From the NCBI RefSeq assembly GCF_035084215.1, contig NC_090342.1:38316001-38380000 (forward strand): a stretch of DNA of 64,000 nucleotides, in the 5' to 3' direction. The translations under genes and the position numbers were made by a program. The notes under the pieces were generated by a model that worked only from the letters and a program-made list of their open reading frames with translations, made no database searches and was not told the DNA's origin. Of this stretch, positions 7,724-60,577 are shown in pieces; the stretch's first letter is position 1; every line of letters starts with the position of its first letter. The stretch comes from Heptranchias perlo (Eukaryota).

Positions 7724-7818
7724 ACCGTTCACCTGAGGAAGGAGGAAGCCTCCGAAAGCTTGTGGAATTTAAAATAAATTTGTTGGACTATAACTTGGTG
7801 TTGTAAAATTGTTTACAA
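7724..7818 (+). mobile_element. Penelope-like element terminal fragment with 13-bp TSD
   Basis: Hammerhead motif plus AATAAA plus TGTTGGACTATAACTTGGTGTTGTAA. Flanked by TTACTTGGAGATG at 7711-7723 and 7819-7831. Confidence 0.8.
7728..7767 (+). ncRNA. Minimal type I hammerhead ribozyme motif (Penelope-associated)
   Basis: TTCAC-CTGAGGA-A-GGAGG-AAG-CCTCC-GAAA-GCTT-GTGGAA: intact CUGANGA/GAAA core, stems I and II, and palindromic AAGCTT in place of helix III. Confidence 0.8.
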
Positions 7819-8352
7819 TTACTTGGAGATGGTGATATAAAGATTAAAGAAAACATAATCTGTTATTTATTTTGTCAGTACCAATTAATGTTAGAATGTA
7901 AAAATGTGCTATCTCAAAATATTTGAAACACATTTGTCCTCAGTATCTTTAGAGAAATAGAAATGCCCCTGACTAAAACATGTTTTATACTTGAACATCA
8001 AGCATTCTGGAAATAGAAGGACCATTTAATAGAGTATAAAATCAATCCACCTAAAAGTACTTTTGATTATATCATGTTTTAGGTTAAAAAAATCATGCAC
8101 AGGTTAATAATCCTATTAAAACAGATCACAAAGAAATTTTCTCTTGGCTCCGAGTTGGGTTGTATTTTGAGCTTTGCCACCAGTAAATTGTAAATGCAAA
8201 CAGTGCCATTGATTGCATATATTTAAATATTACTTTATAGTGAACATTATTCCAGATGTGCAGAGTTTGTGTGGACCATAGCAATAGACAAGCAGACTGC
8301 AAGGAATTTGTACAAATATTTTTTAAATGTATACTGAACTTTTTTTTAAAAG

Positions 8353-8434
8353 ATTGATCAACAGGCATTGGATGGCCAAATCAATGATAGGAAAATTCAG
8401 GAAGAGACAGAAGCTAGAAAACACACAGCCTTTG
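8353..8434 (+). CDS. RIBC2: RIBC2 coding exon 2
   Basis: IDQQALDGQINDRKIQEETEARKHTAF. 82 nt, tttaaaag acceptor, TTG|GTAAGT donor, phase 0-1. Confidence 0.92.
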
Positions 8435-8719
8435 GTAAGTTCTAGACTCCTGATGATTTAAGGGAGTGAGTAAGCTGGTGATTAGATGACTAAAATACCA
8501 CCTCTTCCTCCTCCTGTCCAGTGTCCATTCAGGTACATGCAAATGTCTGGCCATGAGAGAAAATACAGAAATGATCCTCTTTGATAGCTGCCAAGAGCCA
8601 AAAGTAAAAACAAAGCATCTTTCAAACCCAGTTCCCAAAGGAAATGAGTCCAGATAAAATTTCCAAAGTATGGTTGGCATCAGTTTATTAGAACATAAGA
8701 AAAAATCTTCTTTTAATGT

Positions 8720-9120
8720 TAGCTTCCAATCTCTCCCCTCCATCCTATTTCTCTGCCACAAACTTTTTTGTTGCTGTCTTAGTTTATCAATACTACTATG
8801 GCCATTCCTGCTTTCAGTTTTCCTCTCATGCTCCTTCTAAATTGCAAATATGCTATCCTACATGCTCATCCATCCTGCATCTCCACGCTGTTGAAATCAA
8901 GACTCATTGCACTGTCTCCTACTCTAATACATTGTTTCACAGGATCTCAAAACTGTGGAACTCTTTACTTCCCCGGTTTTCCCTTCCTCATGCACTGTAT
9001 AGGCATTTAAAACCTAAGCTTGGCATTACCTAAATATTACTGCAACTCTACCCTTGAACCTTAGTAGGCTCCTGCACTACTCGTCTTAGCCCTTCACTTA
9101 GCTATTTCTATTAAAGTAAA
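8720..9120 (+). mobile_element. Old CR1/L2-group LINE 3' fragment
   Basis: HLHAVEIKTHCTVSYSNTLFHRISKLWNSLLP resembles a LINE ORF2 C-terminus. Confidence 0.55.
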
Positions 9121-9989
9121 AGTTATTAGAAAGGCCATTCAGGTCATCAAGCTATAAACTATTGCAAGCTATCATTTGGACAACAATTTCACTTACTAAA
9201 TCTCACGTCCTTACATGCTTTTACCCCACAAAATGCCTCACATAGCATATAATTGTTTGGTGCATGCATCAAGTCATCAAACCCATTATAGTATGACTGC
9301 TGACACAGGGTTTTATTACATGTCATGGTAACCAAAGGTAATTCTTTTTGCAATTTTTTCCAGGATAAGACAGCTCATAACATGAGGGAGAGCTGCAACA
9401 GGTGACTGTCCCCCAAATCTTGAAACTGTTACTCTGCTGTGAGGAAGAAGCTCTTTAAATTCTGGGGTGGGAGGGCATAGAGTATGTCATAAATGGAGAA
9501 GTAGGACCCAGAAGGGCATTTTCAAGCTGCAGGTTCATGTTGAACTTTTGCTTCTCTTCTTTCCCCTCTTGCTTTAACTGTCAGCAGACCGTGGGAGGGT
9601 CAAGCTTAAGATGGGTCAAATGGCCTTCCTTATCTGTATTCATCATGTGAACAATATTGTTACACCACATCTAAACTTCATAGTGTCTTGTGCTAAATCT
9701 CAATGCAAGGACAACGAAAGATTTACAGAACCCTACCTTTAGCTGCTTCCTTTTGCAGTCATTAGTTCCAATTCAATCATACTTCCTATGAATTCTGATT
9801 CATTACAGTTTGTCCCATTGATGAATTTTGAACATTGTGACAGTATAAATAATCATCAAGTCCTGAAATTTCTCAGGGCTGTTTTATGCTGCAGTTGCAA
9901 TGGAGGGGTGGGGTCAGCTTTTTGGATGAAATGACAAGTCATCAGGCACAATTATTCAATGACTCTCTAATTCTTTCACCTGAATCCTG

Positions 9990-11450: not shown

Positions 11451-11459
11451 ATCAAGCAT

Positions 11460-14386: not shown

Positions 14387-14480
14387 ACATTTACCTGAGG
14401 AAGGAGGAAGCCTCCGAAAGCTTGTAGATTTCAAATAAAAATTGTTGGACTATAACTTGGCGTTGTAAAATTGTTTACAA
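14387..14480 (+). mobile_element. Penelope-like element terminal fragment, nested in an old SINE
   Basis: Near-identical to 7724-7818; interrupts SINE-like sequence at about 14200-14540. Confidence 0.78.
14389..14429 (+). ncRNA. Minimal type I hammerhead ribozyme motif (Penelope-associated)
   Basis: ATTTAC-CTGAGGA-A-GGAGG-AAG-CCTCC-GAAA-GCTT-GTAGAT. Stem I shows a compensatory change relative to the 7728 copy. Confidence 0.8.
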
Positions 14481-14806
14481 GTAACTAATTTAGTACAAGC
14501 TAGTAATTGAAGTGGTTTCTTGTCCATATGGCTCAGAATACACAAATTGTATTGGCAATATAGGCAAACAGTACAACCGTAACAATGTCAAAAGAAATAC
14601 ACTGAATTAAGAAAAACTAATGGATTGTTTAGATGGTGCAGATATCAAATGACTTTCTTTTAAAATATTTTAATTGTTGAATGTATGCATTTTTAACACA
14701 TTGGCAAAAGATGCCTTCTGTGAGTTCGCCCCCCCCAACCTCTCCACACACAAAAAAGCGAATAATACGTGTGATGCCACATTGCTTCTCTTATGTTTTG
14801 CTGCAG

Positions 14807-30086: not shown

Positions 30087-30335
30087 TGCTCTCCAGAAGG
30101 CAGTTATTCATGTTGGAGTACGATTCTACAAGTATCTCATTGTCTTTTGTATGTGAGGCTGAGCAATGAGTACCGTCAGGCTACGCAACAGTGTGGAAGT
30201 ATTTCAGCAGAGGCCGATTTTGCCCTCACCTGACATTTACACACACGCCCTTTTCAAGAAGAGAAATTCTGGCTGATTTTTATTCTCCTCCTCAGTTTCA
30301 GGAAACTGAAGTCAATTGTAGTTCCCCCATATTGT

Positions 30336-40077: not shown

Positions 40078-40138
40078 ATGGATCTCCCAGCTAGAATCTC
40101 GGTAACGTTGCTCAGTCTGTTGCTGTTCAGCCTACAAG
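40078..40138 (+). CDS. FBLN1: FBLN1 (fibulin-1) coding exon 1, signal peptide
   Basis: MDLPARISVTLLSLLLFSLQ plus 1 nt, hydrophobic and leader-like. AAG|GTAAGA donor; phase 1 joins exon 2 in frame. Confidence 0.82.
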
Positions 40139-41679
40139 GTAAGAGAGAATGCATTGCAACAAGTACATTCATGACTCTGCTGTCTGCAACCATGCTGGCT
40201 GGCTGCAAGCAGTCAGAAAACAGAGCTCCTTTGTTACCTATTTGAAAAGGACACAAATAATCAAATTCTTCTGGGGAAAATGTATTAAGGAGTGTTTGGA
40301 TTAATTAATTTAAAATTACACTGCACTTATTTTTCTTACTAATCAGTGCATGAAGCTGATTTAAACATTGGAATGTTTCTATGTGTGATGATTTGTGGCT
40401 ATTTCTTCAATGTTTAGTCTGCATTTCAGAATAATTGTTGGGGTTTTTGGAGGCCCTGTGTAAGGTCCCATTCACTGCACTTTTATACATCACTCGGTTA
40501 ACTTGTAATTGTAAGTGCACCTCTGGTACTGCGGTTGCTAGTTTTCAGAATTTAAAAAAATCTCAAATCAATTTTTCACAGGACCTCACCATGTGCCATA
40601 GGTTGGGATCTAATTTAACAAAAGGAATATTTGCTTGTAAGATAACCTATACCTTTTTCAGCACCATGAATGTCTTGGTGAAGATATAAAAACCATACAT
40701 TGCAGAATTAAAAAAATCTTTCATTGCATTAACTTTTGTTTAAATTGTTAGTGGGTTGGAGGAGAGGGGGTGGAGATCACACTGTTGCAGTGTAGACTTT
40801 GCATATAGTACAAAATGATTGCTTTGTGAGGCAGACTATCCAGGAATTCAGCCTACTTGCAGGGCTCTACATAATGATGATGTAACCCCTTTAAGAATTG
40901 TAATGTCAAGGCTGCAAGACCATGCCTGTTGTAGCTGTATCAAGCCTGTAAAGCTATTTGCCCCTGTAGCTGCATCAAGGCTGTAAATTATTTGCTCCCT
41001 GTAGCTGTATCAAGCCTGTAAAACAACAAACCGGCAAAAGCAACAAAGCTGCCAGAATGTTATGGAACTGCGAGTTTCAATTTTTTTTGGAAAATCCAAT
41101 GCTTCCCTGAGGCTTACATGCTCAACTTTGTTAATGAATGCAGGAGATTAATTTAATTCTTGAACTGGGATAGCTATTATGGTGATGACCAAGTTGGCAT
41201 TTATACAAATCTATATATCACTTCAAAAAATTGAAGTTCACATTAATAATGGCTTGTTCATAGCTGTTGGTGTGTGTAATGGCATTTGTGAAGTTACACA
41301 TTTGTAATGCTCTCATAATATGTTATCGCTTTTTTAATATCTTGTATATGTTTTTCCCACAAAAATATTTAATTGCTTTATATATTTAACTTTATAATCT
41401 CTCCCCCATCTCCACACCAGCAACTTGTTCCAATGCAGCCTCCTTTGATCAGGATGGTCTGAGCTGATGTAATAAAATGGTGGTGCTTGTGGGCTGAGCT
41501 GGTGAGGCAGCACAATGAAGTTCCAGGGTACTGTGCCATAAATCAACATGGCAAAAGTTTGTACCAGCAGTTTTGCACACAGTAAGTTGCTGCTGTCAGG
41601 TGTGTCCATGGAGTAGCAGTGGTGGTGCCAAGTTCCAGTAGAAAGCTAAGCTCTTGTCTTACCTAATCTCCAGATCCAC

Positions 41680-42341
41680 AGGTACAAAAATTAATCCAAA
41701 TGGCTGATGGAATGTTGGTCTTTATCTCAAAATGACTGGAATACAAAAATGAGGAAGTTATGCTTTAGTTGTATAGATCCTTGGTTAGACCCCATCTGGA
41801 GTACTGCGTTCAGTTTTGGGCACCGTACCTCAGGAAAGGTATTGGCCTTGGAAGAGGGTAGAGTGCTGGTTCACTGAATGATACTGGAGTTTAAAGGGTT
41901 AAATTTTGAGGCCAGATTGCATAAACTTGGTTTGTATTTTCTTAAGTGTAGAAAGTTGAGGGGTGATCTAATTGAGGTACTTCAAATGATAATGTGATTC
42001 TATAGGCTAGATACAGAGAAATGATTTCCTCTGGCAGGGGAATCCAGAAAAAGTGGGCATAATCTTAAAATTAGATCTAGGCCATTTGAAGTGAAATCAA
42101 GAAGCATTTTTTCACAGAAAAGGTAGTGGAAATCTGGAACTCTCTCCCCCAAAAGAATGTGGATGCTAGGTGCATTGAAATTTTCAAGCCTGATCGATAG
42201 ATTTTTATTAGGTAAGGGTATCGAGGCATATGGAGCAATGGAGAATAAATGGAGTTGAGGTGCAGATCCGCCAAATGACAGAGGGGCAATGACAGGCTCG
42301 AGAGGCTGAATAGACTACTCCTGTTCCTATGTTTCTATGTC
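41680..42341 (+). mobile_element. CR1 LINE 3' portion
   Basis: [23 protein letters not shown] and tail CTACTCCTGTTCCTATGTTTCTATGT. Confidence 0.88.
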
Positions 42342-44899
42342 ACATCTCCACTGACGTGCCCATGTAGTTCTAATAAGGTTTATGACCTCGTATACTGGGG
42401 GAATGGTGAGTCTGTACAACCTATACCAGGCGCAGCCGCTGATCATTCCACTGCAACAATCTCCCCTCCTCAAATTTCCTGATAGCAGATGAATGCCTAT
42501 CCTACCAGCATAAATTTCCTGAAATTTGCAAAAACTAAAAAAGTAAATGCAACATGTCCAAAAAAACTTGCACCAAATTAAATCCAAAAAGACCCAAAAT
42601 TACCTCACATTTACTCCTAATGCAGCCAAACATATTAGGTCAGCCATCTTGACATAAGTGCCGGGATGCACGTGCTGGCAACCTCTAGTGTTGATCCGCT
42701 AATGTTTGTGGGGTCATGGGAGGTCACCCTATTAGCATAATCTGGGTTGGCGCACACGCCACTAAGATCTCATCTTGGGTGCCCACCTGCTAGTCCTGCC
42801 TGGACATTGTGGTTTGGAGTGATGATTCTGTGGGGGAGGCAGTCCTAGGGGCTGTAAATTAGGCCTTAGAATGAAGATGGCAATGCCCTATCTGCCCCCT
42901 TTATAAGGAGAGTGAAACATTTATACTCAACTTTTTATATCTTCAGGGGTCCACACCATGACCCCCAGCTGGGCCCCACTTTCGCCGTTTGGAGGGCTGG
43001 TATATCTGCTTCCAACCAATGTATTTATCGCTCATGTTCTATCTGGCTGGGGATGAGGAAACTCTCGGCCTGAGAGTCACCGCTCCTTCCCACGCCCATG
43101 TTATGCTGGTGTCTTTGTTTGAGATGGGCAGAGACTCCATAACCATAAGGCTCCATGGCAAATGGCAGGGAATGCCAGGACCCAACATTTCCAGGTCCAG
43201 ACCTAACTGACGGCCCTTCCGCTGGAGTCACACCAGACTTATGGCAGGAGTTTGCCGGAAGGGCCATGGAGTTTAATGCCCAGCTTTGAAAAAAAACAGG
43301 AAGTTCACAAATGAACCTGTTTAAAACGAGCCTTCAACAATGACATTGCATTTCTGGGGGCAACGACAGAAATATTGACATTGAATGTGAATTTCTGTGT
43401 GTTACTTGGCAGGCATGCTGAACTCCACAGTTAGTATGATTCTTACAAAAATAAGACTACATATCAAACATAGGTTTCCATTTTGTGACAATTAAAATAT
43501 GTGTGTATACTTTGTTGAAATCTTTTTATTTCTTTGTGATGGTAATTAAAGTCAGATATAGAAGATTGTGCAAAGCAACCTTTGGTTCCTACTTCACTGT
43601 CCGTGTGGATACACTGGCCTCTTCAGTTACAGGAGAACATCCTTGCGTTGTCAATTGTGCAGTATAGTTAATGATAATCAAATGAATTGTGATGAAAGCT
43701 CTTGAACAAATTTCATGCAGCAATTTATTGTAGCAGTGCAATATCTTAGTGAGTTTATGGTTCTTTTTCATGGTTTTACGGTTATAGCAGGAAGGGGAGG
43801 AGAGGGTTTTTTCAGTGGATGTTTACAGATTGAATTCCAAATATGAAAGTTAACTCCAAAGCAGGAATTTTAGTTTGCTTAATGCTTAGCCTTCTGTTCT
43901 GATGGGTTGAGATGCTCTATCCACAATTACAGCCATAATCCTGCTTGATGAAAGTGCAGTTGTTTAAGGGTCTGGAAATGGTTGGCAATGGAACGAGATG
44001 CCAAGCCTCAGTTGCCTAAGAATTGGGAAATCATCATAAAATTGGTGTTGTTGATCAGGAGGTCATCCAGATGCAGAGGAATTTAAAAATATTTATTTTA
44101 TTTACAAAGTTAAGTTGCAAAGTTCTCTGCTTGTTGGTCATTTCCATTCCCTTTTTACTTTAAGATCTAATTCAAGTCTCTATCACTTATAAAATAATTT
44201 ACAGTGCTGGTGAATTAGTAACATTAAGTCATTGAAAGTCCACAACATAAATGTAGACAATCTGTTGAAAGAGCGAGATTAATCAACCATATGTCTTTTC
44301 TTGCTTCATACTACTCTTATCTAAGAGCAGAAAGTTGGTTCCACAACAGCATTTTATTTCTTTTTATTATTCGAACAAAAACAAAATCCAGGGAAATGAA
44401 TCTTAATCAATCTTTTATTTGGCAAACAACCTGCTTGTATTTGCACAAGGTATCAAAACTAAGAGCATTATCATTCAATAGTTTCTGAGCTTCAGTCTCC
44501 TATCTAATAATATGGTACACTGTCATGTTAACTGTGACTTAAGCCATTTGCTGAATTTGCTGGGTGTACACCTAAAGAACCATTTGACTGCATGCACTAA
44601 CTTTAGAAAAAATAAAATCAAACTTAATGTACGTTCTATGAAATATTCAAGCTTTAGGTAAGTAATACGTCATGCAATGTTATACTTTAGTTCACACTGT
44701 AGTGATAGACAGTTAACTCTACTGTACCATACTGAGCGGGATAATCAGAAGGTCAAGACTGCAGGTTCTGTACTCCAATCAAGCTACCATCCTGTGTTTC
44801 TCAGCTGAATCCAGTAGGAATTCAGTATTGCTGTTTGACCATTGTGCCTGCCAATGCCTTGTTTACCTAGTCATCCATAGATTAAGGTTTGCAGCTCTG

Positions 44900-46150
44900 G
44901 CTGGCTTTCCACAAGTGTAGACTGCACACACGTAGCCATCAGAGCACCCTCCAACCAGCCAGGAGCCTTTGTTAACCGCAAGGGCTTCCACTCCATCAAC
45001 TTCCAACTCATGTGCAACCACAAGAAGAGGTTCATGCAAGTATTTGCCCGATACCCAGGGAGCTGCCACAATGTCATCATCTTATGCCAGTACAATATCC
45101 CTCTCATGTTTCGACCTGTTTCCTCCAGTGTTAGAGGATGGCTTGGGGACAAAGGATACCCCCTCCTACCATGGCTGATGACACCTATTCGGAACCCCAC
45201 CAATCCACAGCAGAACAGGTACAACAGCAGCCACATCACTACAATGTGTGTCATAGAGCAGGCCATTGGGATGCTCAAGTCAAGGTTCAGGTGCCTTGAT
45301 AGTTCTGGAGGCTCCCTGCAATACTCGCCAGCTAGTGTCTCCAGAATAATTGTGGCATGTTGTGTTCTGCATAACATCGCTCAACAAAGAGGATTGGAGG
45401 TGCAGGAGGAAGAAGGCCTGCAGGACTTATCATCTGATCAGGAAGAGGATGGTGAGGAAGAAGAATGGACATGATGCACGGCGTGTGGTGCATTTTGCAG
45501 CCTGAAATGCAAGGGATGCTCTCATAGCTCACTTTACCTAGCGATCTCTTATTCCTACCACTCTTATGTGACCAAACCCCTTTGCACTAACAGCCCTGCA
45601 AACTTCACTCTATTGCTTTACAATCTTCCAACTTGCCACCTTGAAAACATTGAACCAACTTCCACACCTATGATGTAATAACAAGGCAGACACAGTAATT
45701 ACCTTGAAAGCAGAGAACATACAAAAGTGACAGAAGTGAGAAAGGTTTTAATGTGCACCAGAAAGCAAATATTTACAAATCAAGTAGTGCAACACCCAAA
45801 TATGAACCCTAAGTCCTCTTTTTGGCCAATGGCTTCCTAGGTCTACCACTTCTATGAGGTGCTACCCCAGTAGCTTGAGCAGAGTTAGTGGTAGGCTGCT
45901 CTGTATCTTCCTCAGACTCCTGGGATACTCGCGGCTGATGACTTCTGAGTGCTGGAGCCCGTGAGGCCCTGCTCCTGGGCTAATGCTGGGGCAGCTGGCG
46001 TTCAGACACCACGTCGGGTATTGGTTGAGGGATTGGCAAGGATTGAGACATGCTGACCTCCTGAGAGAGGTCTACACATGTTGCACCCATGCCACCAACC
46101 TCCCTCCCTTGGACCAGTGGCATATCAGTCCTGTTGGTCTTAACCCCCAA
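44900..46150 (+). mobile_element. Harbinger relic: HARBI1-like DDE transposase C-terminal half, probable convergent second-gene relic downstream
   Basis: FVNRKGFHSINFQLMCNH..ARYPGSCH..GWLGDKGYPLLPWLMTP..VIEQAIGMLKSRFRCLD..ACCVLHNIA plus an acidic tail. Confidence 0.88.
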
Positions 46151-46805
46151 ACAGTTTGTACTGTGCGCACAGCAAAATCCCAAGTCTGGCAGAAGTATTC
46201 AGTTGATTACAAAAGTATCATTCTAAAGAGTGAAGTCTGCTCCAAACCAACATTTCAACTGTAATCTTTGATTGATGAAAGCATATTTTATTACAAATGA
46301 ATCTGCCAGCAGTCTATACATGGTGCTTGTCCTTCGCATGTTCTTTGAATGTTGAATTGTTGAGGATGTCTGAAATTGAGCACTTTCATCAATCAAACAT
46401 TTAGATTTCTTGTCTGCTGAAGATAATTTATCACAAAAATATTCTTGACATACACTGTAAAGAATGACTCTTCAGTGTCTTGGATATGCCAGTGGATTAT
46501 TAAAATGTCAAAAAGACACTGAAGAATGTTTTTGCGATCTAGTTTTCATTTTCTGGCAGTTTCACATAAGTTTGGCAAGTGTAATGTTTTGCAATCCATG
46601 CTGTCATCATGTCCTAGTTTTGGTCGAAGCATGCCCCACCTGTTAATACAGAGTATTTTTAGACCTGCCCATTTATATACCAAGAAATAGGCATTCATTT
46701 TGTAATGCTGTTAGTAATTTAGTTCACTGAAGATGATTTTTTTTCATATCAGTGAAAATTAAAAACTATATTAAATGGTCCATAGCTTATTAACTGTTAT
46801 GTGTA

Positions 46806-47190
46806 GGCTCCTTTAATAGCTCAGTGGGTAAATTGACCAGTTGCTGTGCTACTGAGCTATAGAGATAAGGAGGTTTCCAGGTGCAATTCTTGGTCTGTGC
46901 TGAGCTTTGATTGCAGATGGGGCAGTGGGTGAGGGAGTACTACAAGGTCACCATTCCTACAAATAACCTAGTAATTCTTGCTGAAAAATGCGCAGGAGTG
47001 TGTGCATACACGAATGTTGGGTAAAAATTTGTTGAGCTCAACGATAATAATGGTTTAAGATTGTGTTGATACTCATTGACTAGGCTTACATATGAATTGC
47101 CACTTGGGTGAGATACCATGGGGCTGCCAGGTTTGTGGAATCATAACCCAGTATAGATCGGCACCTTCAGCAGCAGTGAATATTGAGGGA
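46806..47190 (+). mobile_element. Old tRNA-derived SINE family (many copies)
   Basis: Box A TAGCTCAGTGGG and box B-like AGGTGCAATTC. Related copies at about 2440-2760, 18950-19185, 30095-30660, 38400-38650, 39100-39485, 50405-50510 and 57285-57755. Confidence 0.6.
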
Positions 47191-49797
47191 GCGGCAGTTA
47201 GGGCTGCCGTACTTAAAGAAACAACTATTGGAGTGCTCCCCTAATAGCTCTGTTGGCAAATGTAGTGCTTAGTGTAGAGCTGAACTGTACAGATCAGGAA
47301 GTTTTCCAGTCTAAGCTGATTTAGCTGGCCTAATAGTTTTACAATAATAAGTGTAAATGAAGAATTGATCATAGTGTATGTTTTGGGGTGCAAGTGTGCC
47401 CGGAGGTGTGTGCCAGAACTTTCAACTTCAGTGCAGGCATAAAATGTGCGATATCAGATACCGTTATACACCCTGCCAAATTTTCCTTTCAAAATTGGGT
47501 GGGGTGTATAATGGGCAGGCAATCCGATATCACCCATTTTATGCCCTTGGCATAGTTGAAAGTTCTGCTCATAGGCTCTCAAAATCTGTGGGTCTTCTGA
47601 TGCATGCTTGCCATAAGTTGGACAGGAATATAGTGGAAGGCCTGTGAATTAATCCAGATACGCAGCATCCTAGCCTCCGCTTCTAATTTCCGTGGGGACT
47701 TTTCAGGGTGGAACATTCTGGGATTTCCTGGTGATCTTTGTTAGAGGTGGAACTTATGCTTGCCTCTTACAAGGCCCATAATGTCATGGAGTGGCTCCAG
47801 GGTTGGTGATTCCCTATGCCAAGTTCCTGCTTCTCCAGCTCATCTGGGACCCGGCATAGGACTAGAGGCCAGTGTACCAAGTGACATGAGTGGGCCCTAC
47901 ATGGAAGATCCTAACCCCAGAGAAACTACATTTTAAAAAAGAAATTGGATTCTCCCTTACACTGGGACAAAGGGAGAACACTGTGGAGTCTTAGTAACAC
48001 CCCCACCCCCCCATGGTGGATTGGCACTGGATATGCTGGCTGCATGGAGCAAGTGGGCACCGAAGATGTGCCTATAATGGCACGGGATGCTCCCCAGCCA
48101 CATACAAGTTAGGTGCCCTCCTGATGATCCTCCAAACTCCAGTGGAATCAAAGCTGGAGGGCACCATCAGGTCCTATCCTGGCATAACCAATTTACCAAA
48201 TCTACATCTCAGTCACTTGTGTTTCTGTAACATATTTTGTTGGACTTTATTTTTGTCACAACAACCTATTGTGTGCTTTTAAATACATTAAATAATTATG
48301 CCAATGAGCCTGCTGCAATTTGGGACTTGCTTGTCACTTTGGTTTGTGTCCTGATTTGGGTTTTAAAATACAGTTCTCTCTTTCAACTGTTTTACAGGCT
48401 CTCCTGTGAGCAGACTGTCCTCCCATGAAGGGGAAGCTGCACATTTATGTAGTTTGTGCTTGTAGATGTTGCGTGACCAGTGCCTAACAATTACCCCAGT
48501 TGCAGTAATCTGTGTACTGGACCTCATGCCAACTCATACAATGTTTTGAATCAGCTCACCAAGACAGAATATTAAAACACAGACCAATGTTTTTACTGTC
48601 TAAAATTAATAAGTATTTACTTACAAATTAAAGAAGCATCAAAATTAGGGTTAAGTGATATTAACACAACACAATAATCAATCATAAAGGCACTTTGCAA
48701 TGTTCATAAGGGATTAATTATCTGATGAATAAGTAAGATAAATGGTCAGTTTTTCTGAGCATTGTTGCCTGATAAAATACTGACGACAAAGCCTCTCTTT
48801 TCTTCAATCACCTGCCAAATGCTTTGTTGGTGATCATTTCTCCCTAGTTAGAATTCAGAGATGAACTCAATTTACTTGCTAAAGACCAACTTTTTTATTC
48901 AAAATTTTCATTAATGTTAGACTTCCCATCATTGTTTGGCAGCATTCATAAACACAATTAACAATCCACTGAAATGTGATGATCTTAAATCCAGGAAATT
49001 ATTAACAATGTGCGGCGGAATGCTCTTTGACACAAGACAAAGAATTTCCACATATATTCAACAGATTACAATTTATAACCAACAGATTTTCAAACCAAAG
49101 ACTAAGGCATAACTGATCTGATCAAAGCAACTTTCTACCCTGAAAGTTTCCCACATTAACAGCTTTAACATATAATATCAAATGTGCAACACCTTTAAGC
49201 CTGCAGGTATAGAAATCCCGTCGCACCACCATTCAATAAACACAGCTGTTGACATCATAATACATCAATTAGTGTTTCAAACCAATGCCATGATTCCCAA
49301 ACAGAAATTCCAGCCAGGCTGGTGCCAGATTACATATTTGATTTAAAAAGGAAGGACAAAGTTTGACTTTGGTTATTTTATATTTTAAAAAATACAATAG
49401 GGCATATTTTTTATTAATTGCACAAGATCTATTTCCTTCTCCTTTTGCAGTTTTGTTATTCATTAGTGAAAGCATGTGATGGGGGGTGTTATTATGGATG
49501 ATGGGTCAATAGCGCACTGTGCAATTTCTATTGTTTCTCATTGTTGGTGCCTTGGGACGTGTATCCATCCTAGAGGTGACTGTGAGATAGTGACGAACAA
49601 CATTGCTTACATTTTGTGCTTTCCTTGGCATGGATGCAGCACAGTTGAAATACAAGCTCAAAAGGCAAAAGTGTGGAATGCTGTAGGCTGGGAATCAAAT
49701 ATTGCTTACACACATCTGGCCAGCAAAAAATAATCACAGCTGCACTGAAAGCCATTCTGTTCTTGCAGCTATTTGTTTGATTTTTCTTTTCTTGCAG

Positions 49798-49906
49798 TGA
49801 CAGTACAGAGTTCAATTGATGCCTGCTGTTCAAATGGACTGGAGTGGGCCTCTGAGAAAGAGGAGTGTGCTTCTCTGCCCTATACACTAGAAGAGCCATT
49901 TTGCAG
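49798..49906 (+). CDS. FBLN1: FBLN1 exon 2 (anaphylatoxin-like module 1)
   Basis: VTVQSSIDACCSNGLEWASEKEECASLPYTLEEPFCR. 109 nt, strong pyrimidine tract plus cag, phase 1-2. Confidence 0.92.
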
Positions 49907-51054
49907 GTATATTTCTCAAACATCCTGAAATTTGCCTTTAAGCAAATAATTCATAATCGTGCAGCTTGTTTGAACTGTTGTTTCAATGTAAGTGTTGAAA
50001 TTGCAACAAACTGCTTGTTGTGGGATGTTGTTCACGGTAATTGATGGACATACAGGAGGGGACATTGACTGTTAATCTGGTTAAAAAAAACTATTTGTTA
50101 TTTCTTTCCGTTACATCAGGCTCTGGCAGTTCAGGTAAATAAGTAAGGGCTCTGAAGAAGTACCAGGATATGGAATTGTTTATGACATATATTAACCAAA
50201 CAAAGGCAATGCAATTAAAACTGATTTAGGTGAAATTAAATACTGGAAAGTCCTTACATAAAACCTAATGTATTCAGCTCTGTTCAGTCATATAAAGTAA
50301 CAGCAAGAATTGACAGCAAGTCACCAGACTGAAATGGCTTTGAATCTGAACCAGCAGTTGTACAATCATGTATTTTTGTTAAAGCTTTGTGGTATATCTC
50401 TGCTGATGGCTCAGGGATAAGTGCATCAAATAATGTGATACTCAACCATATAGACCAAGAAGGTACCAGGTTCAGTCCCTGTTCTGTGCTGAGGCACTGA
50501 ACCATAAGGTGCATCCTCACTTTAATATGCTGGAGAATTCACTCCCAAGAATGAAAAATTAATGAGTGTCAAAGGTACAGTGTTGACTTCTGCAAAAATT
50601 GAGATTTGCAGATTGTTCACACTCTGGTAGAATCATGACACATGAAAAATATTTCCTTTAACATCATTTAATGCTTTTTTAAACATGTTGTTTTAGAACT
50701 AATCCAGGATGAGAGAGAGAAAGAAAAATACTGTACCCATTCTTATAAAACATCCCCTTTAGCAGATTTTCTCAGTTTGGTCTGACTGACCAGCTGTGAG
50801 AACTCCCTGTGATGATATAGTGCAGATAATTGCTGTTGAAAGCAACCCGCTTGAAACTAGCTCAACTAACTATCAAGAGCCATGACAGGAATTTCAACTT
50901 TATGCTCGCACACAAGAGGTACTCATCTCTGTCCTGAGAATGATTTTTCATGACCTACAGACCAGAAATGTTTTCAAACAATTACGTTTAATCATTTTTT
51001 TAAATCTTGGTATTAACAGCTGAATACTTGTATCTATGTAGTGGTTTTCACATC

Positions 51055-51520
51055 CTCAGGACATTCCAATTAATTAATTTTGAAATGAAGTCAAACATGG
51101 CAACCAATTGCACACAGTATCTTCCCACAAGCAGCAAATGAAATAAATAACCAGTTAATCTGAAATAAAAATAGAAAAATGCTGGAGAGGACAAATGAGT
51201 TGACGTTTCAGTTATGGATCCTTTATGAAAAGCATCTGCTTTTTTTTTTGCTTTTTGACCAGTTAATCTGTGATTTTTTTTCTGTGGCATTGGTTGAAGG
51301 GAGGGCTGTTGGCCAAGACATTGCCTGTTCTTCAAATAATGCATTGGATCTTATTGGAACAGGCAGACTTGGTTTAACATTTCATCTGAAACAGAGTACC
51401 TCCAACAATGTGATACTTCCTCAGTACTGTACTAAATTGTCAGCCTACATTATGTGCTACAAATCCTAGAGTGGGGCTTGAACTCATAACCTTTAGACTC
51501 AGAGATGAGAATGATGCCAG
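51055..51520 (-). mobile_element. Deu-domain SINE, minus strand, degraded
   Basis: Reverse complement of the 29695 family (GGTTTAACATTTCATCTGAAA..CCTCAGTACTG..GGGGCTTGAACTC). Confidence 0.65.
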
Positions 51521-52009
51521 TTAAGCTATGCTGAGCCATTTGGCCCATGCAGCTAAGTTCATCCTGCCATAGAAATGGCATGAGGGTGGTTTGGGTAGAT
51601 TTCCCTTCTGATCATTACTTCCTTCCTTATCCAAGTGGCTGCCGCCTCTTTTCAGTCTCTACATTATACTCTGGACTCAGAGGGGCCAATTTTCACTTGG
51701 GAGCGTTTGGAAAACTAGCATTAGCGGATTGGCTGCCTGTCATGAGCTCACCTGATTTTTCTTTCCATTGCCAGTTTTCTGCCCACACTGAAAGTGAAAA
51801 TTACCCCCAACATTTCACGATGTGTGCAGTAGTGAGTGAGAATCTGTACTCATCTACTCTGCTGCATAAAATGGATATGCTTCAGTGGAAAATGCTGATA
51901 GATTGCATGGTAAATACAGTTTTAAAAGGGAGGAAAAGTAGGCAAGGGATTAGAACAGTGCTTCACAGCCTGAGTGTTTACTATAACTAATGGTAATATT
52001 CAACATTCA

Positions 52010-52084
52010 ACAAGGGCAATTAGGGATGGGCAATAAATGCTGGCCTTGCCAGCGATTCCCACATCCCATGAACGAATAAAAAAA
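52010..52084 (+). mobile_element. Extreme 3' end of the 11460-family LINE with 8-bp TSD
   Basis: CAAGGGCAATTAGGGATGGGCAATAAATG..GAACGAATAAAA; AACATTCA at 52002-52009 and 52085-52092. Confidence 0.85.
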
Positions 52085-54583
52085 AACATTCAGGTGGCTG
52101 CAAGTCTAGCTCAGCCTTTGCAGAAATGTAATTTTTTTGAGGATGTTAGGAGGTCACAAGTAATTATGAGAAAATTATCTTAAGGGATTCAGATGAAAAA
52201 CTACCATGATATAATCACCCACTTCCCCACCAGTGAACGTTGTAGCTGACTTTGACAGCTAGGATATTTGATTCAGTCTTGCAGGCCATCCTCGGGGAAA
52301 GATTATATTTGAGATGTAATCACAAGATTACTGAATTTATTCTGCAGTAGATGACTGGAAAATAACCCTCTATATCTGCGCATTATGAGGGTTGATTCTA
52401 GGCAACAATTTTGTGACAAAAGTGCCAAATGATACGTTAGAAAGTGAAGCATTTAATTTATTTGTTATCTGCAAAATCTATTTTGCAAAAAAATTCCTAT
52501 TAATAAACTTTTTGCAGATTTGCAAAATTAAAAATGAAAAATCAACTTTTGTAATAATTTGTTTTTTTGGAGTTTTATAGCCAACTAAAAGTTAATTAAA
52601 TTTCTATAAAGATCATGGCAGAGTCATATTTCTGCCATTATCTTTGTTCAGGGAAGTAATAGCTTTCTAGTCTGTTCTGAACTCCTCCTTCACTGATGTG
52701 ACAACTTAGGTGCTTTACATGAAGTCTACTGCAGATTCATTGAATTTAGACACTGTCTGACAGCTAGTTATTTTTAAGAATGTTAGAACTCGCACTAGCA
52801 TTTTTTGGCACTGATGATGGTTTCTAAAACCCACAATCTGTGTGTGTCTGTATGTGAGTGTGAATGATGGTGATAGAGCGGGGGGCGGGGAGAGGAGAAG
52901 ATACCATTGAGAAACACAGGAAATGCCTCAAGGGTTGTAATGGGGTGCAGACACAAAGACCGGCAAAGCACAAAATAATGTGTCTTGTATGTGTTGTTGA
53001 GTTGAAACAATTTGAGGTTGAAAGCTTGTGTTAAACTTTTTTCAGGAAATAGTTGGCCTTAACCCTTAAGCTTTAGTGGCACCCTGGAGTGATGCTTTTG
53101 AGGAGTGACCTTTTGAAGTGACTCCATCATAAAATCTAATTACCAAAGCATTTTAGGAATAAATATCAGAGGGTTTGACCCTGCAAGGGGTTGGTGGGGG
53201 ATGGTGGGATATAAGGAAGATTTTCTCATGTGTGTTGTTAGTTGCTTAAACTGTTGAGTTATGTGGTAGAATGTGCTGTCAAAGTGTGAGGCTCTTCAGA
53301 TCAAGTCACTTCCACCACCGCAACTGAAGTGTGTGCAGCTTTACACGCTGTTTTTGATTTTTAAATTATTTTTCCTCCATCTGGAAGACAATATGCGACA
53401 CACTGCACCCTTTATGGCTGCTATGTTGTGAGTGAGAATGGCCTGGGAGGAGGGTAACTTTCTTCAGTCCTGCCCCTTCCCCCTCTTGTGGGTAAGCATC
53501 AAGCTGCGTGTTTGGTGCATCCCACAGTTCTGTGATGCCATGACTTGCTGCTTTACTCCATATGCTGATGTGGCTCATTCATTTTCACGCTGTGATTTCT
53601 GCTGTTCCATATTCGTGCTGTTCATCAGTTTGGCTCACAAGGAACTAAACGGCAAATATGCCCATTTGTGCCAGGCCATGAGCGGCCTTAAAGGACTGCT
53701 GGAGACTGCTCCAAAAACTGCATCCAGGCCCAACAAGCTCACCTGACCGATAGGACCCCGGCAATTGGCTGACCCACCTCCCCCCTGATGATGGACCCCC
53801 CCCCCTGATGGTGGACCCCCCGATGGCGGACTTTCCCCCCCCCTCTGATGCTGGAACCCTCCACCCCCTGATCAACGAGGCTTGCTGAACCCCCCCGATC
53901 TCTGATGTTGCCTGAATCCCCCCGATCCACGATGCTGGCTGGATCCCCGATGTCGTCCACCTCCCCACCCCCATCCATCCGATTTTTTGCAGTGCCGATG
54001 ATCTCTCTCTCTCCCTCCGTCCCCCTATCTGATGTGCAGCTCCTTTCCCTGCCGACAACCAACCAGCCTGTCAATCAGGCTGGCTGCCGGGTGCGAAACC
54101 CCTGATCGCGACCCGCCCACTTACCTGCCGGATTTCGCACCTGGAAATCTTCCCCCCCACTCCCTTCCTGGCTAGAAGCTAAAATTTACCCTCTGATATC
54201 ATCTCAGCTAGAAATAGTATGTGACTTAGGGAAACTGGAAAAAGAAAGGAGGAAGGGTCAGAAAGCAACTATAGACCTCTATCTTTTTTGATTTATTTTA
54301 TTACTGTACTTGCTTTTTTCTCAAATCTGACAGCTCCATTTTCTTATCTCTTCAATATTCTTTTCTTTCTGAAAGCTCACATTTAGTACATTGCTACTGT
54401 GGGTAAATTTTATTTTGGTTTAATAGTCCTTCCCTTACACAAAGTAACATGTGGTATTGATCAATCCTTAACATGCCTTGTTAGTGTAATTGAAGCTGCA
54501 AAATACTTCCGAGACTTGGCTGACTTTTACCTCTGTTTCCTGTTTTGTAAGAAAAATAAAATTTCTCACATTCCACATTGCAG

Positions 54584-54713
54584 AATAGCACAGGAACAAT
54601 GTTGCCGGGTAAAGCTTGAAGAGATCCACTGCACAAATGGTATAAACATGGCCAGCGAGAACCAAGCATGTGAGGCACAAGGCATTGTCACAGACAAATG
54701 CAATGCTGTAAAG
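54584..54713 (+). CDS. FBLN1: FBLN1 exon 3
   Basis: RIAQEQCCRVKLEEIHCTNGINMASENQACEAQGIVTDKCNAVK. 130 nt, phase 2-0. Confidence 0.93.
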
Positions 54714-54819
54714 GTAATGAATTTTTTTCCTTCCAAATGCCCTGATATACAATGGAATTTTTAGTACACAATGCTTTACAAAGGGTATTGAACTTTATTC
54801 TCTGTTGAGTAAAAACACT

Positions 54820-56304
54820 GGCCTAGAAATTAATTCACGCCAGTCTGCTCCGGAACAGGTCGGCCAAAGGCACACCCGATATTGGGCCTCTGGCCTCATT
54901 TTGTTGGGACTGGTGAGCTGCAGATGCCTGCTGGGTGTCTCCAGGCAACTCGCCGGCGAAGAGGATTTCAATTTCAGGCCGCTACATCGCCGACAGCGGC
55001 CCTCGGGTAGGTCCTGGGAGAGGGGGGTAGCAATTAGAAGTGAGGGGAGCAATCAGGAGGGGGCTAATCGGGGTCCTGCAACAGTCTTCAGCTCTGCAGT
55101 GGACTCGGGAGGAGCACCCCTGCTCTTCCTGGCTCCACATTCAGGTAAGTATTTTTTTTAAATGTACCTTTTTGGTGGTGGCCAGCGGTCCCTTTAAGGA
55201 CCTCTGGTTAGGATGCATGTTTTAAAAAATATATTCATTCTTGAGATATGGGCATCATTGGCAAGACCAGCATTTATTGCCCACCCCTAGTTGCCCTTGA
55301 GAAGGTGTGGTAGGCCTTCTTCTTGTACTGCTGCAATCCATGTGGTGAAGGTACGCCCACACAGTTGTTAGGTAGGGACTTCCAGGATTTTGACCCAGCG
55401 ACAGTGAAGCAATGGCAATAAATGTCCAAGTTGGGATGGTGTGTGACTTGGAGGGGAACTTGGAGGTGGTGGTGTTCACATGCACCTGCTGCCCTGGTCC
55501 TTCTAGGTGGTAGAGGTCGCAGATTTGGAATGTGTTGCTGAAGAAGCCTTGACGAGTTGCTGCAGTGCATTCTGTGATTGGTACAGACTGCAGCCATGGT
55601 ACGCTGGTGGTGGATGGAGTGGATGTTTGTGTTGGTGGATGGGGTGCTGATCAAGTGGACTGCTTTGTCATGGGTGATGTCGAGCTTCTTTAGCGTTGTT
55701 GCAGCTGCACCCATCCAGGTAAGTGGAGAGGATTCCACTCCTGACTTGTGTCTTGATGGTGGAGAGACTTTGAGTAGTCAGGAAGTGAGTCACTCGCCAG
55801 AGAATACCCAGCCTCTGAACTGCTCTAGTAACCACGGCATTTATGTGGTTGGTCCAGTTGAGTTTCTGGTCAATGGTGACCCCCAGGATGTTGATGGTGG
55901 GGGATTCGCCGATGGTAATGCCATTGAATGTCAAGGTGAAGTGATTAGGCTCTCTCGTGTTGGAAATGGTCATTACCTGGCACGTGTGTGGCGCGAATGA
56001 TACTTGCCACTTATCAGTCCAAGCCTGGATGTTGTCCAAGTTTTCGTGGGCCTGCTGCATTCAGGACAGTCCAATTTTGAAAAGGGGGCGTCAAACAGGC
56101 ATGCGGCCCACTATTTGTATATACAAAGGTACTAATGCTTGTTTCAGGCGAGGGCCCTGAGCACCTTTTCTGCCTTTACTAATATGGTGGGTGGCACAAT
56201 TCCGATGTGTAATGAGTGTGCCTGCTCTGCTCGCCATATTGGGTGCTGAGGCGCCCGTTTTGTGCCTGAAAAAGGCCACTGACTCCACTGCTCAATTATA
56301 CCTA
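54820..56304. mobile_element. Harbinger-type MITE split by a LINE
   Basis: GGCCTAGAAATT-type left end; CpG-rich halves at 54820-55225 and 56060-56304 resemble the other MITEs. Confidence 0.5.
55232..56060 (-). mobile_element. Older copy of the 11460-family LINE
   Basis: LDNIQAWTDKWQVSFAP..INILGVTIDQKLNWT..SKSWKSLPN. Confidence 0.9.
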
Positions 56305-57536
56305 GTGGATTTGTACAGTTTTATCAGTTAAAATCGATTTTAAAAAGTGGCCCATAATTAGGTCAGCTCAGTAATTATTAAGTCATGGTTAAAGCCAAAG
56401 CATTGACCATATGTTAAAGATTACGTTTTGGCATAAGGTAAAAAATCAAGGGCAACTCGTCTGGATTGCAATCTGCTTAAATTCTAGTCCAGTCGTTTGA
56501 GATCAAGTAAGTGGCACAAGGATTCCAGGAAGACTGGAAGAAAAAAAAGTTCAAAAACCTTTTTGGGGGGTGGGTAGGGACAGAAAGAAAAAGTTATAAA
56601 AGCAATTCTCAGTTTTTCTTTCTCTGCCGCTGTGACTTGTTTATGAAATGAATATGTAAATTGGGTCTTCATGGTGAAAGTGAAGCCTACTGTCATTTTG
56701 TCAACTTTAATTCAAGTCTCCGTGTATTACACACCAATCCTTGGGTGAAAGGGTCAGCAGCTCCCAAGACTTTGCCATTGCTGTTTAGTAACTGGCAGGA
56801 AAAGAATGAGCACAGCAGGAGTTGTTGCATAGTGACCAGGAATGCAACTTCCCTCCACTCCAAACCTAACCCCAATCCCTAATCTGGACATGTTGAGGCC
56901 AATTATAGCATCCCCACTGTTGCCTTCACTTAGATCAGTTAACTCAGCAAACTCCTGCAGTAATTGTAAAAGCCCCAAAGCACTCCTGTGTAGTAACAAG
57001 AATGGACATATACATCTCTTTAGTAACAAATAAAATCATCTCATTAAATTTTGTGAAAAGGCTTACAACAAGATGGATGCTGACACAGTACACTGGAGCA
57101 CACACATGTGAGGCCACAGAATTGTTAGGAATGTCGATTCAGTTTCCCACATGGGGCTGAGTTAGGCCACTGTAGAGAAGTGTTGAGTAATGGTCATAAC
57201 CTGTTAACAGCATTTCTAATTCTCTGATCTGCTCCCTGATCACTGCTGAACTCCTATTTCAACCATTTTATTCAGCCAGTGTTCTCCCCTTCCCTCCTTT
57301 CCTGAAGGCATTGAGTCATTACTGGGGTACAGTTCCACAACCACCAGTTGCTTTCCAGTTCCTTACCCAAGCAGCTATTCCTCATGTGTGAGGTAAGACA
57401 ATGAGTGTTGGCAGGCCAATTAGCCATGGGTAGAGGGCAAGAGGTGTGGGGGGTTGGGGAAGGCATCTGAACTGAATTTGACCTGGTCCTCATCTAATGT
57501 CTAAATGTACACTTTTAGGTGGGGGATTTCTGGATA

Positions 57537-57692
57537 TCAATCATAGAATCATAGAATCATAGAAGTTTACAACATGGAAACAGGCCCTTCGGCCCAACAT
57601 GTCCATGTCGCCCAGTTTATACCACTAAGCTAGTCCCAATTGCCTGCACTTGGCCCATATCCCTCTATACCCATCTTACCCATGTAACTGTC
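57537..57692 (-). mobile_element. CR1 3' end with (TCTATGAT)n tail nested in a SINE
   Basis: ATCATAGA repeats followed by GAAACAGGCCCTTCGGCCCAAC. Confidence 0.8.
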
Positions 57693-58222
57693 ATTAGCAG
57701 GAACTCGCTCTGATTTTCCCCTCCCTAAACTAGGGGTACTGAGGCCAATTGCACTGGGGGAGCCTGCCTCCTGTCCAATTCTATTCTGTAGGATGTTCAC
57801 TGGAGAAGATTATTTGTTCAGTTGGATGGATTTTCATGTAATTTGATAAAAGCACTCAAGTGAAAGGAAACTCCTGCAATGTGACTCGTTAGCCAGGTGC
57901 TGTTTCTCTAACCATTGCATTGTGAACATGCCTCGTGTTACCTCACACGTTGAGTTACCAATTCAGGCCTAACTGTTAAGAGGAGGTACTGAACACAGGG
58001 AAAGCATTCTCCAGGGTGGAGGGTGAGTTAACTAGGGCTGATCTTCTGCACCTTCTGGTGGACAGTTACAGAAGAGCAACAGAGATTTGGGAACAGATTG
58101 CTTACATGTCCTTTGTTGAGGAACAAAATGTCTGGTGAAGGAGAGGGAATTAATTCCCCAATTAATGGAACAGCATGTATACATTTACCTTTCTCGCTCC
58201 CTCTAATTTCCTTCTTCGACAG

Positions 58223-58421
58223 AAATGCTGTCAGTGTTGTCTTCTGGGTAAAGAAGCTAAAGTCCATGGACTCAGTTGTGAAGCAAATCAAGCCCTGGGA
58301 TACCAATGTGGACAGGTCTACAGGGCATGCTGTGTACGAGAACAAGAAGACATCAACATTCCAGCCACAGGCAACAATACAGAACCATATTCATCCCCAG
58401 AAACGCGCAACCAGAGTTCAG
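58223..58421 (+). CDS. FBLN1: FBLN1 exon 4 (anaphylatoxin-like module 3 + linker)
   Basis: KCCQCCLLGKEAKVHGLSCEANQALGYQCGQVYRACCV...NQSS. 199 nt, CAG|GTAACA donor, phase 0-1. Confidence 0.92.
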
Positions 58422-58636
58422 GTAACATTGAGAGAAGAGAGCAGCCAACCTGAGGGTCGGGCCCATTAATAAAGAAATATGACCCCTTTCCTTTAGCTAA
58501 ATGTGAGAATGCCTTGTTTGTATAGCAAAATGTTAACATATTTCAAGCTGAATGCTATGGTAACAAGAGTAAAGGGTCACTGTCTGCATGAAGCAATATT
58601 TGCCATTTTGTTTTGAGTTTTTGCTGATAAACACCT

Positions 58637-59035
58637 CAGCTTAGCTCAGCTGGCAGCATTCTTAACTTTTGAGTCAGAAAGTTGTGGGTTCAAGCCCTGC
58701 TGCAAGAAATGAATGTATAATCTGGGCTGCCACTCCAGTGTAGTACTGAGAGAGCGCTGCATTGTAAAAAGTGTCATCACTCAGATGAGGCTTTATACCG
58801 AGGTCCAGTTTGCCTGTCTCTGTTGTTTAGGTGGATGTTGAAGATCCCAACGGACTATTTGAAGTTCTCACAGGGAGTTCTTCTGAAATCTGAGCAAACA
58901 TTCTTCCATCAACTGATACCATCAAAAACTGATTTACTTCATCATCTTATTGCCGTTTGTACAAATTTGCTGCTGCATTTCCCCCTTGTAACAGCAATTA
59001 TTGCTGAGAAACACTTTGAAATTTTTCTTGGATGA
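58637..59035 (+). mobile_element. Deu-domain SINE
   Basis: TAGCTCAGCTGG box A, GGGTTCAAGCCC box B, and a Deu-like core as in the 29695 copy. Confidence 0.7.
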
Positions 59036-60302
59036 CGTTTAATTACATGAATTAATTCAGAATGCATTGCCCCTTTACTTGCATTAGGGTGATAAAATTA
59101 TAAACAGATTAATAATCCAAAGCAGGAACAGCACTTCTCTCCCCAAATAAAAAGTTTGTGGAACATTTTTTGTCAGTACTCCTTTAACAAAAAACCTCCA
59201 TTGCAATGGATTGACTGTGTGTTTTAAATTCTCAGGTGATGCAATAAAATGATATGCTGATTATGGGCTTCACTGTATCTGTCTACATACCATGGAATGA
59301 CATCTCATTACCAAGAGATACAATCACTGAGCTGGTTGTTCACCTTCAAACTATTGACGTTAAATGATCTCCCTAACAGTCAGTCTCTGTGATGCCAGCA
59401 CCAGTCGCTGTTAAAAAAACAAAATGAAGTATTTACCTTTTGGTGAGGGTAAACCTTCTTCTTTCTTTTCAGTTTGCTCTCTCCCTTCTCTCCCAGTTGG
59501 GTCGCCTTTCACCTTCCCCAGCCGAGGGGGCAGGCGAGGATCCTACTCCACTTTTGCCAATATGTGACAGTGGCCCAGGGCTGAATTTCACAGCCGACAG
59601 CCTCCCGACTAAAATTCCTAGACGAGACTTCTGTTGAAGGAGTCTTGCTGTCTGTGCACTCTCTTTAAGTGATGATTACTAAAAAAACCTGAGCATATTA
59701 AAATTCTAAAATTGTCCCCAGTGGGCTTTTCTTTTTGATATAGATGGAGTCTGATGTATAATGACATACAACAGAATCTTTGGAAATAGGCTTTTATAGA
59801 GCTGGAAAAGCAGACTACTCACATCTATCAAATATACAGCTAGTGGTGTGGTAAATATCAGAAATCACCGTCAAAATCTTACAATAGTTTAAGAGCAATC
59901 TATTTTGAATATGTCCGCTCCTTACCTTCCTATGACGACTTAAATAGTGAACATGTGGACAGCATGTGGGACAAGATCAGACTCAAAACTTAAATCCTAT
60001 TTGTAACCTCAGCAGTTGTTTTTGAATGAAGGTGTTAGAATATTATCATGTGTTGCTGTTTAAAGTTGCAGCCTTGAAGGCTGCCTCTCCAGAGTCTTTG
60101 TTGTACCATTTCAATCCATCATCTCACAATCTGTGCGATGTGTTCATTTTTCTTGCTTTGGATTATTATTCTGTTCATAATTTGAGAAAAGAAAGTCCCA
60201 TTCATGTATTTCTTTGATTATAATTGTGTTAGTTGGTTAAGTCACCCAATGATATTATATGGTTTTATTCATTTCTAGAGTGATATAATTTCTATCCGAA
60301 GA

Positions 60303-60577
60303 GGTGGACAAATGCAAGGAATCTTACAACACCAGGTTATAGTCCAACAATTTTATTTTAAAATCACAAGCTTTCGGAGATTTTATTTTAAAATCACAAG
60401 CTTTCGGAGATTATCTCCTTCGTCACCTGACGAAGGAGATAATCTCCGAAAGCTTGTGATTTTAAAATAAAATCTCCGAAAGCTTGTGATTTTAAAATAA
60501 AATTGTTGGACTATAACCTGGTGTTGTAAGATTCCTTACATTTGTCCACCCCAGTCCATCACCGGCATCTCCACATC
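60303..60577 (+). mobile_element. Palindromic Penelope-like insertion (inverted terminal copy + tail) with 14-bp TSD
   Basis: 123-bp inverted arms at 60303-60425 and 60428-60550 (1 mismatch), then a unique tail CCAGTCCATCACCGGCATCTCCACATC. ATCCGAAGAGGTGG occurs at 60294-60307 and 60578-60591. Confidence 0.85.
60422..60490 (+). ncRNA. Hammerhead ribozyme motif with duplicated 3' half
   Basis: GTCAC-CTGACGA-A-GGAGA-TAA-TCTCC-GAAA-GCTT-GTGAT, then a second TCTCCGAAAGCTTGTGAT 30 nt later. Confidence 0.8.

Follow-up and report, generated by a model that had tools for sequence, protein, structure and literature searches.

What do four short hammerhead-like motifs lying on one strand within 64 kb of shark DNA represent, working ribozymes of the host genes around them or the debris of a mobile element? 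The stretch considered here, hereafter the window, comprises 64,000 nucleotides of the genome of Heptranchias perlo (NCBI RefSeq assembly GCF_035084215.1, contig NC_090342.1, positions 38,316,001 to 38,380,000 of the forward strand). In an earlier note, the motifs were viewed as a single covarying family derived from Penelope-like elements (PLEs), selected for its fold, imposing a very large ribozyme load on the genome and, for three copies, sense within host introns. In the reading favoured here, with a probability of about 0.88, the motifs are minimal hammerhead ribozymes (min-HHRs) in short end fragments of two PLE families, these fragments being likely 5'-truncated products of reverse transcription and likely inert in place.

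A structural hammerhead search of both strands of the window returned exactly four matches, with cores at 7733, 14395, 30423 and 60427 (motifs 1 to 4, respectively), all on the plus strand and with the stems initially described; among 300 shuffled windows, 292 gave no match and 8 gave one. The CUGANGA...GAAA-NN-UH core with helices I and II, by which min-HHRs are defined, is present in all four, as are a 5-bp stem II and the extra A after A9 already pointed out in the earlier note, i.e., a base left unpaired between positions 9 and 10.1 (an A for 93 of 96 haplotypes), which is a published feature of the class (PMC4209133; here and below, statements on cited work refer to the accessible parts of each source). 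The helix III word is the palindromic AGCT in motifs 1, 2 and 4; motif 3 reads GAAA-AG-TT, where the word AAGT is non-self-complementary and stands in place of the ACGT of its family, so that its palindrome is lost. An Rfam scan of the window yielded no hammerhead match at E<=1, and the Rfam models presumably do not cover the minimal form. Judged by their sequence, all four belong to the minimal type I hammerheads of PLE pseudo-long terminal repeats (pLTRs), an already-known kind for which cleavage is predicted, and they fall into two PLE families, namely family A (motifs 1, 2 and 4, with ~90 nt of downstream sequence in common) and family B (motif 3, a separate repeat). The motifs thus form two families instead of the single one first proposed, and the shared orientation holds for the four intact motifs only, a fifth family A copy with G replacing C3 being found on the minus strand at 60380-60425. 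The haplotype of motif 4 is a singleton, the G of its "GUCAC" deriving from the adjoining inverted arm.

The PLE origin proposed at the outset stands, the ribozymes flanking reverse transcriptase (RT) open reading frames (ORFs) in family A and having decayed RT/endonuclease (EN) sequence upstream in family B. The family A unit measures 3,081 bp and occurs in tandem and inverted arrays with intact ORFs between ribozymes (loci L092, L093 and L099), the ribozyme core starting ~120 nt upstream of the ATG, in the pLTR. The ORF encodes a 902-aa protein (P0001) with an RT domain (Pfam RVT_1, E=3e-10), the linker CHGNLCKTC at residue 753 (CX4CxxC, within CX2-5CxxC) and, at residue 805, YIGET with a Cys/His pattern near the C-terminal end, which we take to be a GIY-YIG endonuclease-like motif. 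Its closest relatives are shark proteins, the relatives have RT domains and GIY-YIG (PF01541) is found in several of the more distant among them. A CX2-5CxxC linker between RT and EN is the criterion of the Neptune/Nematis type (PMC8557442), to which family A would belong by its linker rather than by an RT tree. With dozens of near-identical ORFs, family A is intact and probably active. Family A is young and family B is older and decaying, with RT/EN remnants 25-40% identical to the family A protein and located upstream on the same strand at 7 of 31 loci (one further same-strand match being left out and L058 being a family A insertion) or inverted at 4 of 31. A decayed family B fragment devoid of an intact core is also present on the minus strand at 51157-51230. 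Elsewhere, a third hammerhead-like variant with a GGGU/ACCC stem II (GAAACAUC) was seen on the minus strand of locus L004 around positions 70-98, which suggests further PLE families beyond those counted, and four ~10-kb stretches (L083-L086; C5, 124.70-125.38 Mb), all duplicates of one truncated copy, are >99.8% identical, which points either to segmental duplication in recent times or to a fault of the assembly.

The stem I variants seen in motifs 1 and 2 characterise subfamilies, with 4,356 and 2,550 copies, respectively, and therefore support selection in the source elements. In a survey of 208 distinct core copies, the inner stem pairs are kept in 192/192 instances in 24 recurrent haplotypes and in 515/576 in 72 singletons, the latter including truncation junctions and a few chance matches, and the pairs of family A step through wobbles (C-G, U-G and U-A in stem I; G-C, G-U and A-U in stem II). 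Once 28 haplotypes were aligned, namely the 24 recurrent and 4 hand-picked ones, 93.6% of the cells pair against 26-45% in slid controls and the covariation score reaches 0.641 against 0.227, a value equalled in none of 500 shuffles, these statistics being computed without phylogeny. The count of doubly changed pairs over the same 28 haplotypes does not beat shuffles (reached by 53 of 500), most double changes amounting to a single A-versus-B split. That the fold is selected in the source elements, as the earlier note had advanced, is supported, the inserted copies themselves decaying.

A conserved fold may nonetheless serve something other than catalysis, and the motif might be a conserved pLTR element, acting in protein binding or as a promoter, that is hammerhead-like but non-catalytic. 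A U17 triplet and the absence of tertiary loops predict slow cleavage, and the folding z-scores are unremarkable (-0.7 to -2.2, the best fold of motif 4 not being a hammerhead). In the green anole, ribozyme mutants did not impair PLE insertion in vitro (PMC11167929). Conversely, the catalytic core positions are invariant over the 28 haplotypes while the stems and the helix III palindrome vary, a pattern built in part by selecting on the core, and this invariant core spans two families with proteins only ~25-40% identical, which makes a non-catalytic element unlikely.

The ends of the copies were surveyed over 1,481,000 bases picked by gene position and not by motif, where 78 family A arms were found. 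Their 3' ends fall at +82..95 (short, 42 arms) or +120..135 (long, 35 arms), with a single arm ending elsewhere; these two fixed points lie ~35 nt apart, as in the published PLE tail, and the long one is at the ATG. At the 5' side, 21 arms begin upstream of -16, 43 at -16..+3, 8 at +4..27 and 5 beyond +32, only one beginning at +28..32, i.e., around the cut site at +30. Since 43 of the 78 arms begin shortly before the ribozyme, copies mostly starting no more than ~17 nt upstream of its core, and one begins near the cut site, the RT template is suggested to have mostly included an uncut ribozyme.

These ends also bear on whether the short copies could be a self-propagating non-autonomous unit, such as a non-LTR (long terminal repeat) retrozyme or an element resembling a short interspersed nuclear element, which would be cleaved, circularised and re-inserted. 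While many copies are indeed near-uniform 95-130-nt units with target-site duplications (TSDs), and retrozymes have been reported as PLE derivatives, including in one chondrichthyan (bioRxiv 10.64898/2026.07.22.740005), the ends do not coincide with the cut site, the window copies are single or fold-back and not tandem, and the tandems that were found are 3.08-kb coding units. In addition, identical ribozyme haplotypes occur in long, ORF-linked copies and hairpin junctions vary between loci, leaving this alternative very improbable. Under the PLE reading, the element's protein would nick the DNA and RT would initiate internally close to the ATG, at one or the other of two sites as demonstrated for the anole PLE, and would often run off the 5' end of the RNA just upstream of the ribozyme; this end would be the probable transcription start ~30 nt after a TATA-like box, the template being uncut, and the products would be ~100-130-nt stubs or head-to-head hairpins. 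Selection would act on the fold while the elements are active and in tandem, a pair of AGCU/ACGU words then being able to form helix III, possibly with the element's protein, and the copies would decay after insertion.

Regarding the transcription start, long family A copies possess a TATA-like box 36-47 nt before C3, and the short 5' ends have their mode at TATA+30/31 (25 of 94, in a set mixing motif-selected loci and misassigned long copies). In far-TATA subfamilies, the 5' ends lie further upstream (median 11 vs 7 nt, P=0.012). This gives a hint that the 5' pile-up marks the transcription start, the few clean junctions examined being ambiguous as to an untemplated cap G. Two points count against it: the test of tracking with the TATA box is noisy, its rows including some long copies without a matched reference, and RT stalling at stem I, which is still conceivable, would likewise pile up 5' ends there. 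That the stub ends map the RNA start of the active PLE ~30 nt after the TATA box, with uncut templates in vivo, is put at slightly less than even odds. Insertion ends are available in their thousands and could show if the template is defined in vivo by the ribozyme, a question described as open (PMC8557442; PMC11167929).

The hairpin carrying motif 4 exhibits an identical 30-bp internal duplication in both arms (60349-60412 and 60441-60503). Such a duplication after an intact core was not seen in any other fetched locus, and in other hairpins such slips affect one arm only, which suggests either that one arm was copied from the other or that both share a template variant. Through the duplication, an additional AGCU is present with which a helix III of 4 bp could be closed intramolecularly (-8.0 kcal/mol, versus -16.5 kcal/mol for the best fold).

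The very large genomic load announced from the window is real in number. Counting exact-pattern matches on both strands of the 3.25-Gb genome, the strict A pattern has 70,789 matches evenly split between strands, the core A pattern 85,644 (42,803/42,841; 4 for its control) and the strict B pattern 3,711 (1,869/1,842), with only 24 matches, namely deletion variants, for an A pattern with a spacer one base shorter. The combined ~89,000 matches correspond to an average of one match in 36 kb (1.76 in 64 kb), the four copies of the window being ~2.3x the genome mean (P(4 or more)=0.10). Published min-HHR counts reach ~4,000 in the coelacanth and ~9,000 in X. tropicalis (PMC4209133), and 14,255 tandem retrozymes are given for the axolotl (bioRxiv 10.64898/2026.07.22.740005); the shark figure is several times these counts, all obtained by other methods.

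Wider counting lends no support to any meaning of the shared orientation. In four genes (TRAPPC9, a BRE-family gene, fibulin-1 and the RIB43A gene, with the three window copies included), the copies number 20 in sense and 22 in antisense orientation, 12/14 when only lone ones are counted; over the gene regions, all family A arms are 28/29 and family B 14/14. Because the genome strands are even and genic copies are 20 sense for 22 antisense, the all-plus orientation in the window is due to chance. A strong sense/antisense bias is unlikely, a mild one being compatible with the counts, and the even split argues that vertebrate introns tolerate such motifs.

The same counts bear on the idea that the sense intronic copies are active or co-opted ribozymes cutting host pre-mRNA (RIBC2-like gene, fibulin-1) under host selection for or against them. 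Three of the four window motifs are indeed sense in introns, as originally stated, local folding preserves both stems (I and II) of motifs 1 and 2 (P 0.86-0.99) and the core is kept in 54 of the 55 family A arms spanning the ribozyme. Such integrity nevertheless fits the youth of family A, the older family B decaying: among copies gathered by their downstream part only (n=19), the core is kept in 8 and the core plus palindrome in 3. Besides the lack of sense/antisense skew, a spliced contig, presumed to be a transcript, exists for the RIB43A gene, and published min-HHRs have no activity as monomers and low activity as dimers (PMC4209133). Motif 4 is predicted to be sequestered in a 123-bp fold-back, with a hairpin of -213 kcal/mol and a stem II probability of 0.0 when folded in context. 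Host-directed cleavage is accordingly hardly credible, and the word "load" overstated activity, the published monomers of the class being inactive, motif 3 lacking its palindrome and motif 4 being predicted inaccessible.

As end fragments of PLEs, lone copies at the window loci would likely be inert. Motifs 1 and 2 are each other's nearest same-strand partner, 6.7 kb apart. Two-strand cofolding gave stem-swapped dimers without helix III, an uninformative outcome. The ribozyme of the anole PLE needed protein for cleavage and was not required for in vitro insertion, unprocessed RNA being the main substrate (PMC11167929). By extension, latent half-ribozymes might be present in shark pre-mRNAs by the tens of thousands, silent on their own but cleaved once a partner AGCU is provided in trans by PLE RNA or once PLE protein is bound, in which case PLE derepression would fragment host introns genome-wide; we regard this as a long shot.

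Several observations weigh against the overall interpretation. (i) Of the expected linkage of the termini to RT and GIY-YIG, the RT part is confirmed, but Pfam did not call GIY-YIG on P0001 itself, where the domain is indicated by the motif and by the relatives. (ii) In family B, substitutions are fewer in the core (19/195, 9.7%) than downstream (202/1334, 15.1%; P=0.049), which probably stems from source-level (subfamily) variation of the flanks, weak retention of the core being an alternative still compatible with these numbers. (iii) The gene test is small, the sense fraction of lone copies ranging over 0.27-0.67 with the three window copies included. (iv) A same-strand neighbour lies within 3.5 kb for 15 of 63 copies, which could dimerise in cis.

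Set against known systems, the motifs themselves are ordinary. In the min-HHRs of metazoan PLE pLTRs, the additional base following A9, a helix III that is palindromic and covariation were already published (Cervera and De la Pena, 2014; PMC4209133); the shark copies share the CUGANGA/GAAA core, the base between 9 and 10.1, a short helix I, the palindromic 15.2-16.2, covarying families and a predominance of single truncated copies with some opposite-strand pairs, but differ by a 5-bp stem II and, in family B, by a stem II beginning with A-U and not G10.1-C11.1. With the endonuclease-bearing (EN+) PLEs Neptune and Nematis (PMC8557442; PMC3846280), they have in common a single RT-then-endonuclease ORF, the CX2-5CxxC linker, partial tandems, an inverted 5'-truncated copy, a one-sided 30-40-bp tail, TSDs and TATA/initiator (Inr)-like motifs in the pLTR; unlike in these PLEs, very short stubs dominate in the shark. 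In the green anole, the Poseidon element PAc (Frangieh et al., 2024; PMC11167929) likewise exhibits two 3' end points bounding a tail, an upstream ribozyme and no sign that insertion needs cleavage, yet in PAc the ribozyme and the start codon overlap, RT beginning 111-118 nt inside the ORF, whereas in the shark the ribozyme precedes the ATG by ~120 nt and the long end is at the ATG. Animal non-LTR retrozymes (bioRxiv 10.64898/2026.07.22.740005) are also PLE-related non-coding repeats with type I hammerheads, but are defined by tandem units each with a ribozyme, unlike the four solitary or fold-back window copies. No paper on shark PLE ribozymes was found among the literature matches listed, and the supplements of PMC4209133 and of the retrozyme preprint may hold chondrichthyan counts. 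The motif class and its hallmarks being published, the novelty resides in the scale and in a testable system.

The features of the window are collected in Table 1. The family A stubs span ~95-285 bp. No TSD of at least 8 bp was found in the flanks of stub 2, and the last 5 bases of the left TSD copy of the motif 4 insert overlap the end of the inverted arm.

Table 1. Coordinates of the PLE-derived and host features in the window
Feature	Position	Strand	Remarks
TSD left copy, stub 1	7711..7723		13 bp; right copy 7819-7831
Family A pLTR stub 1	7724..7818	+	starts 9 nt before C3; short ("no tail") 3' end
min-HHR of stub 1	7728-7766	+	predicted cut 7761/7762; ribozyme type in 4,356 copies
Family A pLTR stub 2	14387..14480	+	starts 8 nt before C3; short 3' end
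min-HHR of stub 2	14389-14429	+	predicted cut 14423/14424; ribozyme type in 2,550 copies
Family B (older PLE) end stub	30332..30551	+	min-HHR 30418-30456; intergenic
TSD left copy, motif 4 insert	60294..60307		14 bp; right copy 60578-60591
Inverted family A arm	60303..60425	-	123 bp, 99% complementary to 60428-60550; ribozyme without C3 and stem I
Direct family A arm and ~27-bp tail	60422..60577	+	min-HHR 60422-60460; tail reaches the element's start codon region
First coding exon, RIB43A-family gene	7464..7580	+	further exons 14806-23124
Fibulin-1 exons	40078..60914	+	exons 40078 (10-aa match, weak E), 49773, 54573, 58220, ~60847

Motifs 1 and 2 lie in the sense orientation between the RIB43A-family exons at 7464-7580 and 14806, and would thus be intronic, any intervening exon being unmapped; by synteny, we presume this gene to be RIBC2. 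A presumed-RNA contig joins its exons from 14806 to 23124 (four contig sets from one sample, in which ends, strand and level are not readable). Motif 4 is sense in fibulin-1, between the exons at 58220 and ~60847, one window exon being 100% identical to a protein named fibulin-1 of Heptranchias perlo; motif 3 is intergenic, between the two genes. An SMC1-type gene (minus strand, start near 6960, below the Pfam cut-off) stands head to head with the RIB43A gene (7464), ~500 bp apart, an arrangement which presumably corresponds to the SMC1B/RIBC2 pair.

Other repeats are interspersed in the window. The RIB43A gene holds a 344-bp perfect inverted repeat (18602-18945/19309-19652) around a 363-bp core, possibly a recent DNA transposon or miniature inverted-repeat transposable element (MITE), and fibulin-1 intron 1 a 197-aa frame (44881-45474) resembling, by eye, a Harbinger/HARBI1-type DDE nuclease. 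Three related RT fragments of the long interspersed nuclear element (LINE) type, two of them ~95% identical, lie at 11437-12846, 55232-56060 and 62859-64000, and a complex ~20/61/204-bp tandem array occupies the intergenic positions 31672-32525.

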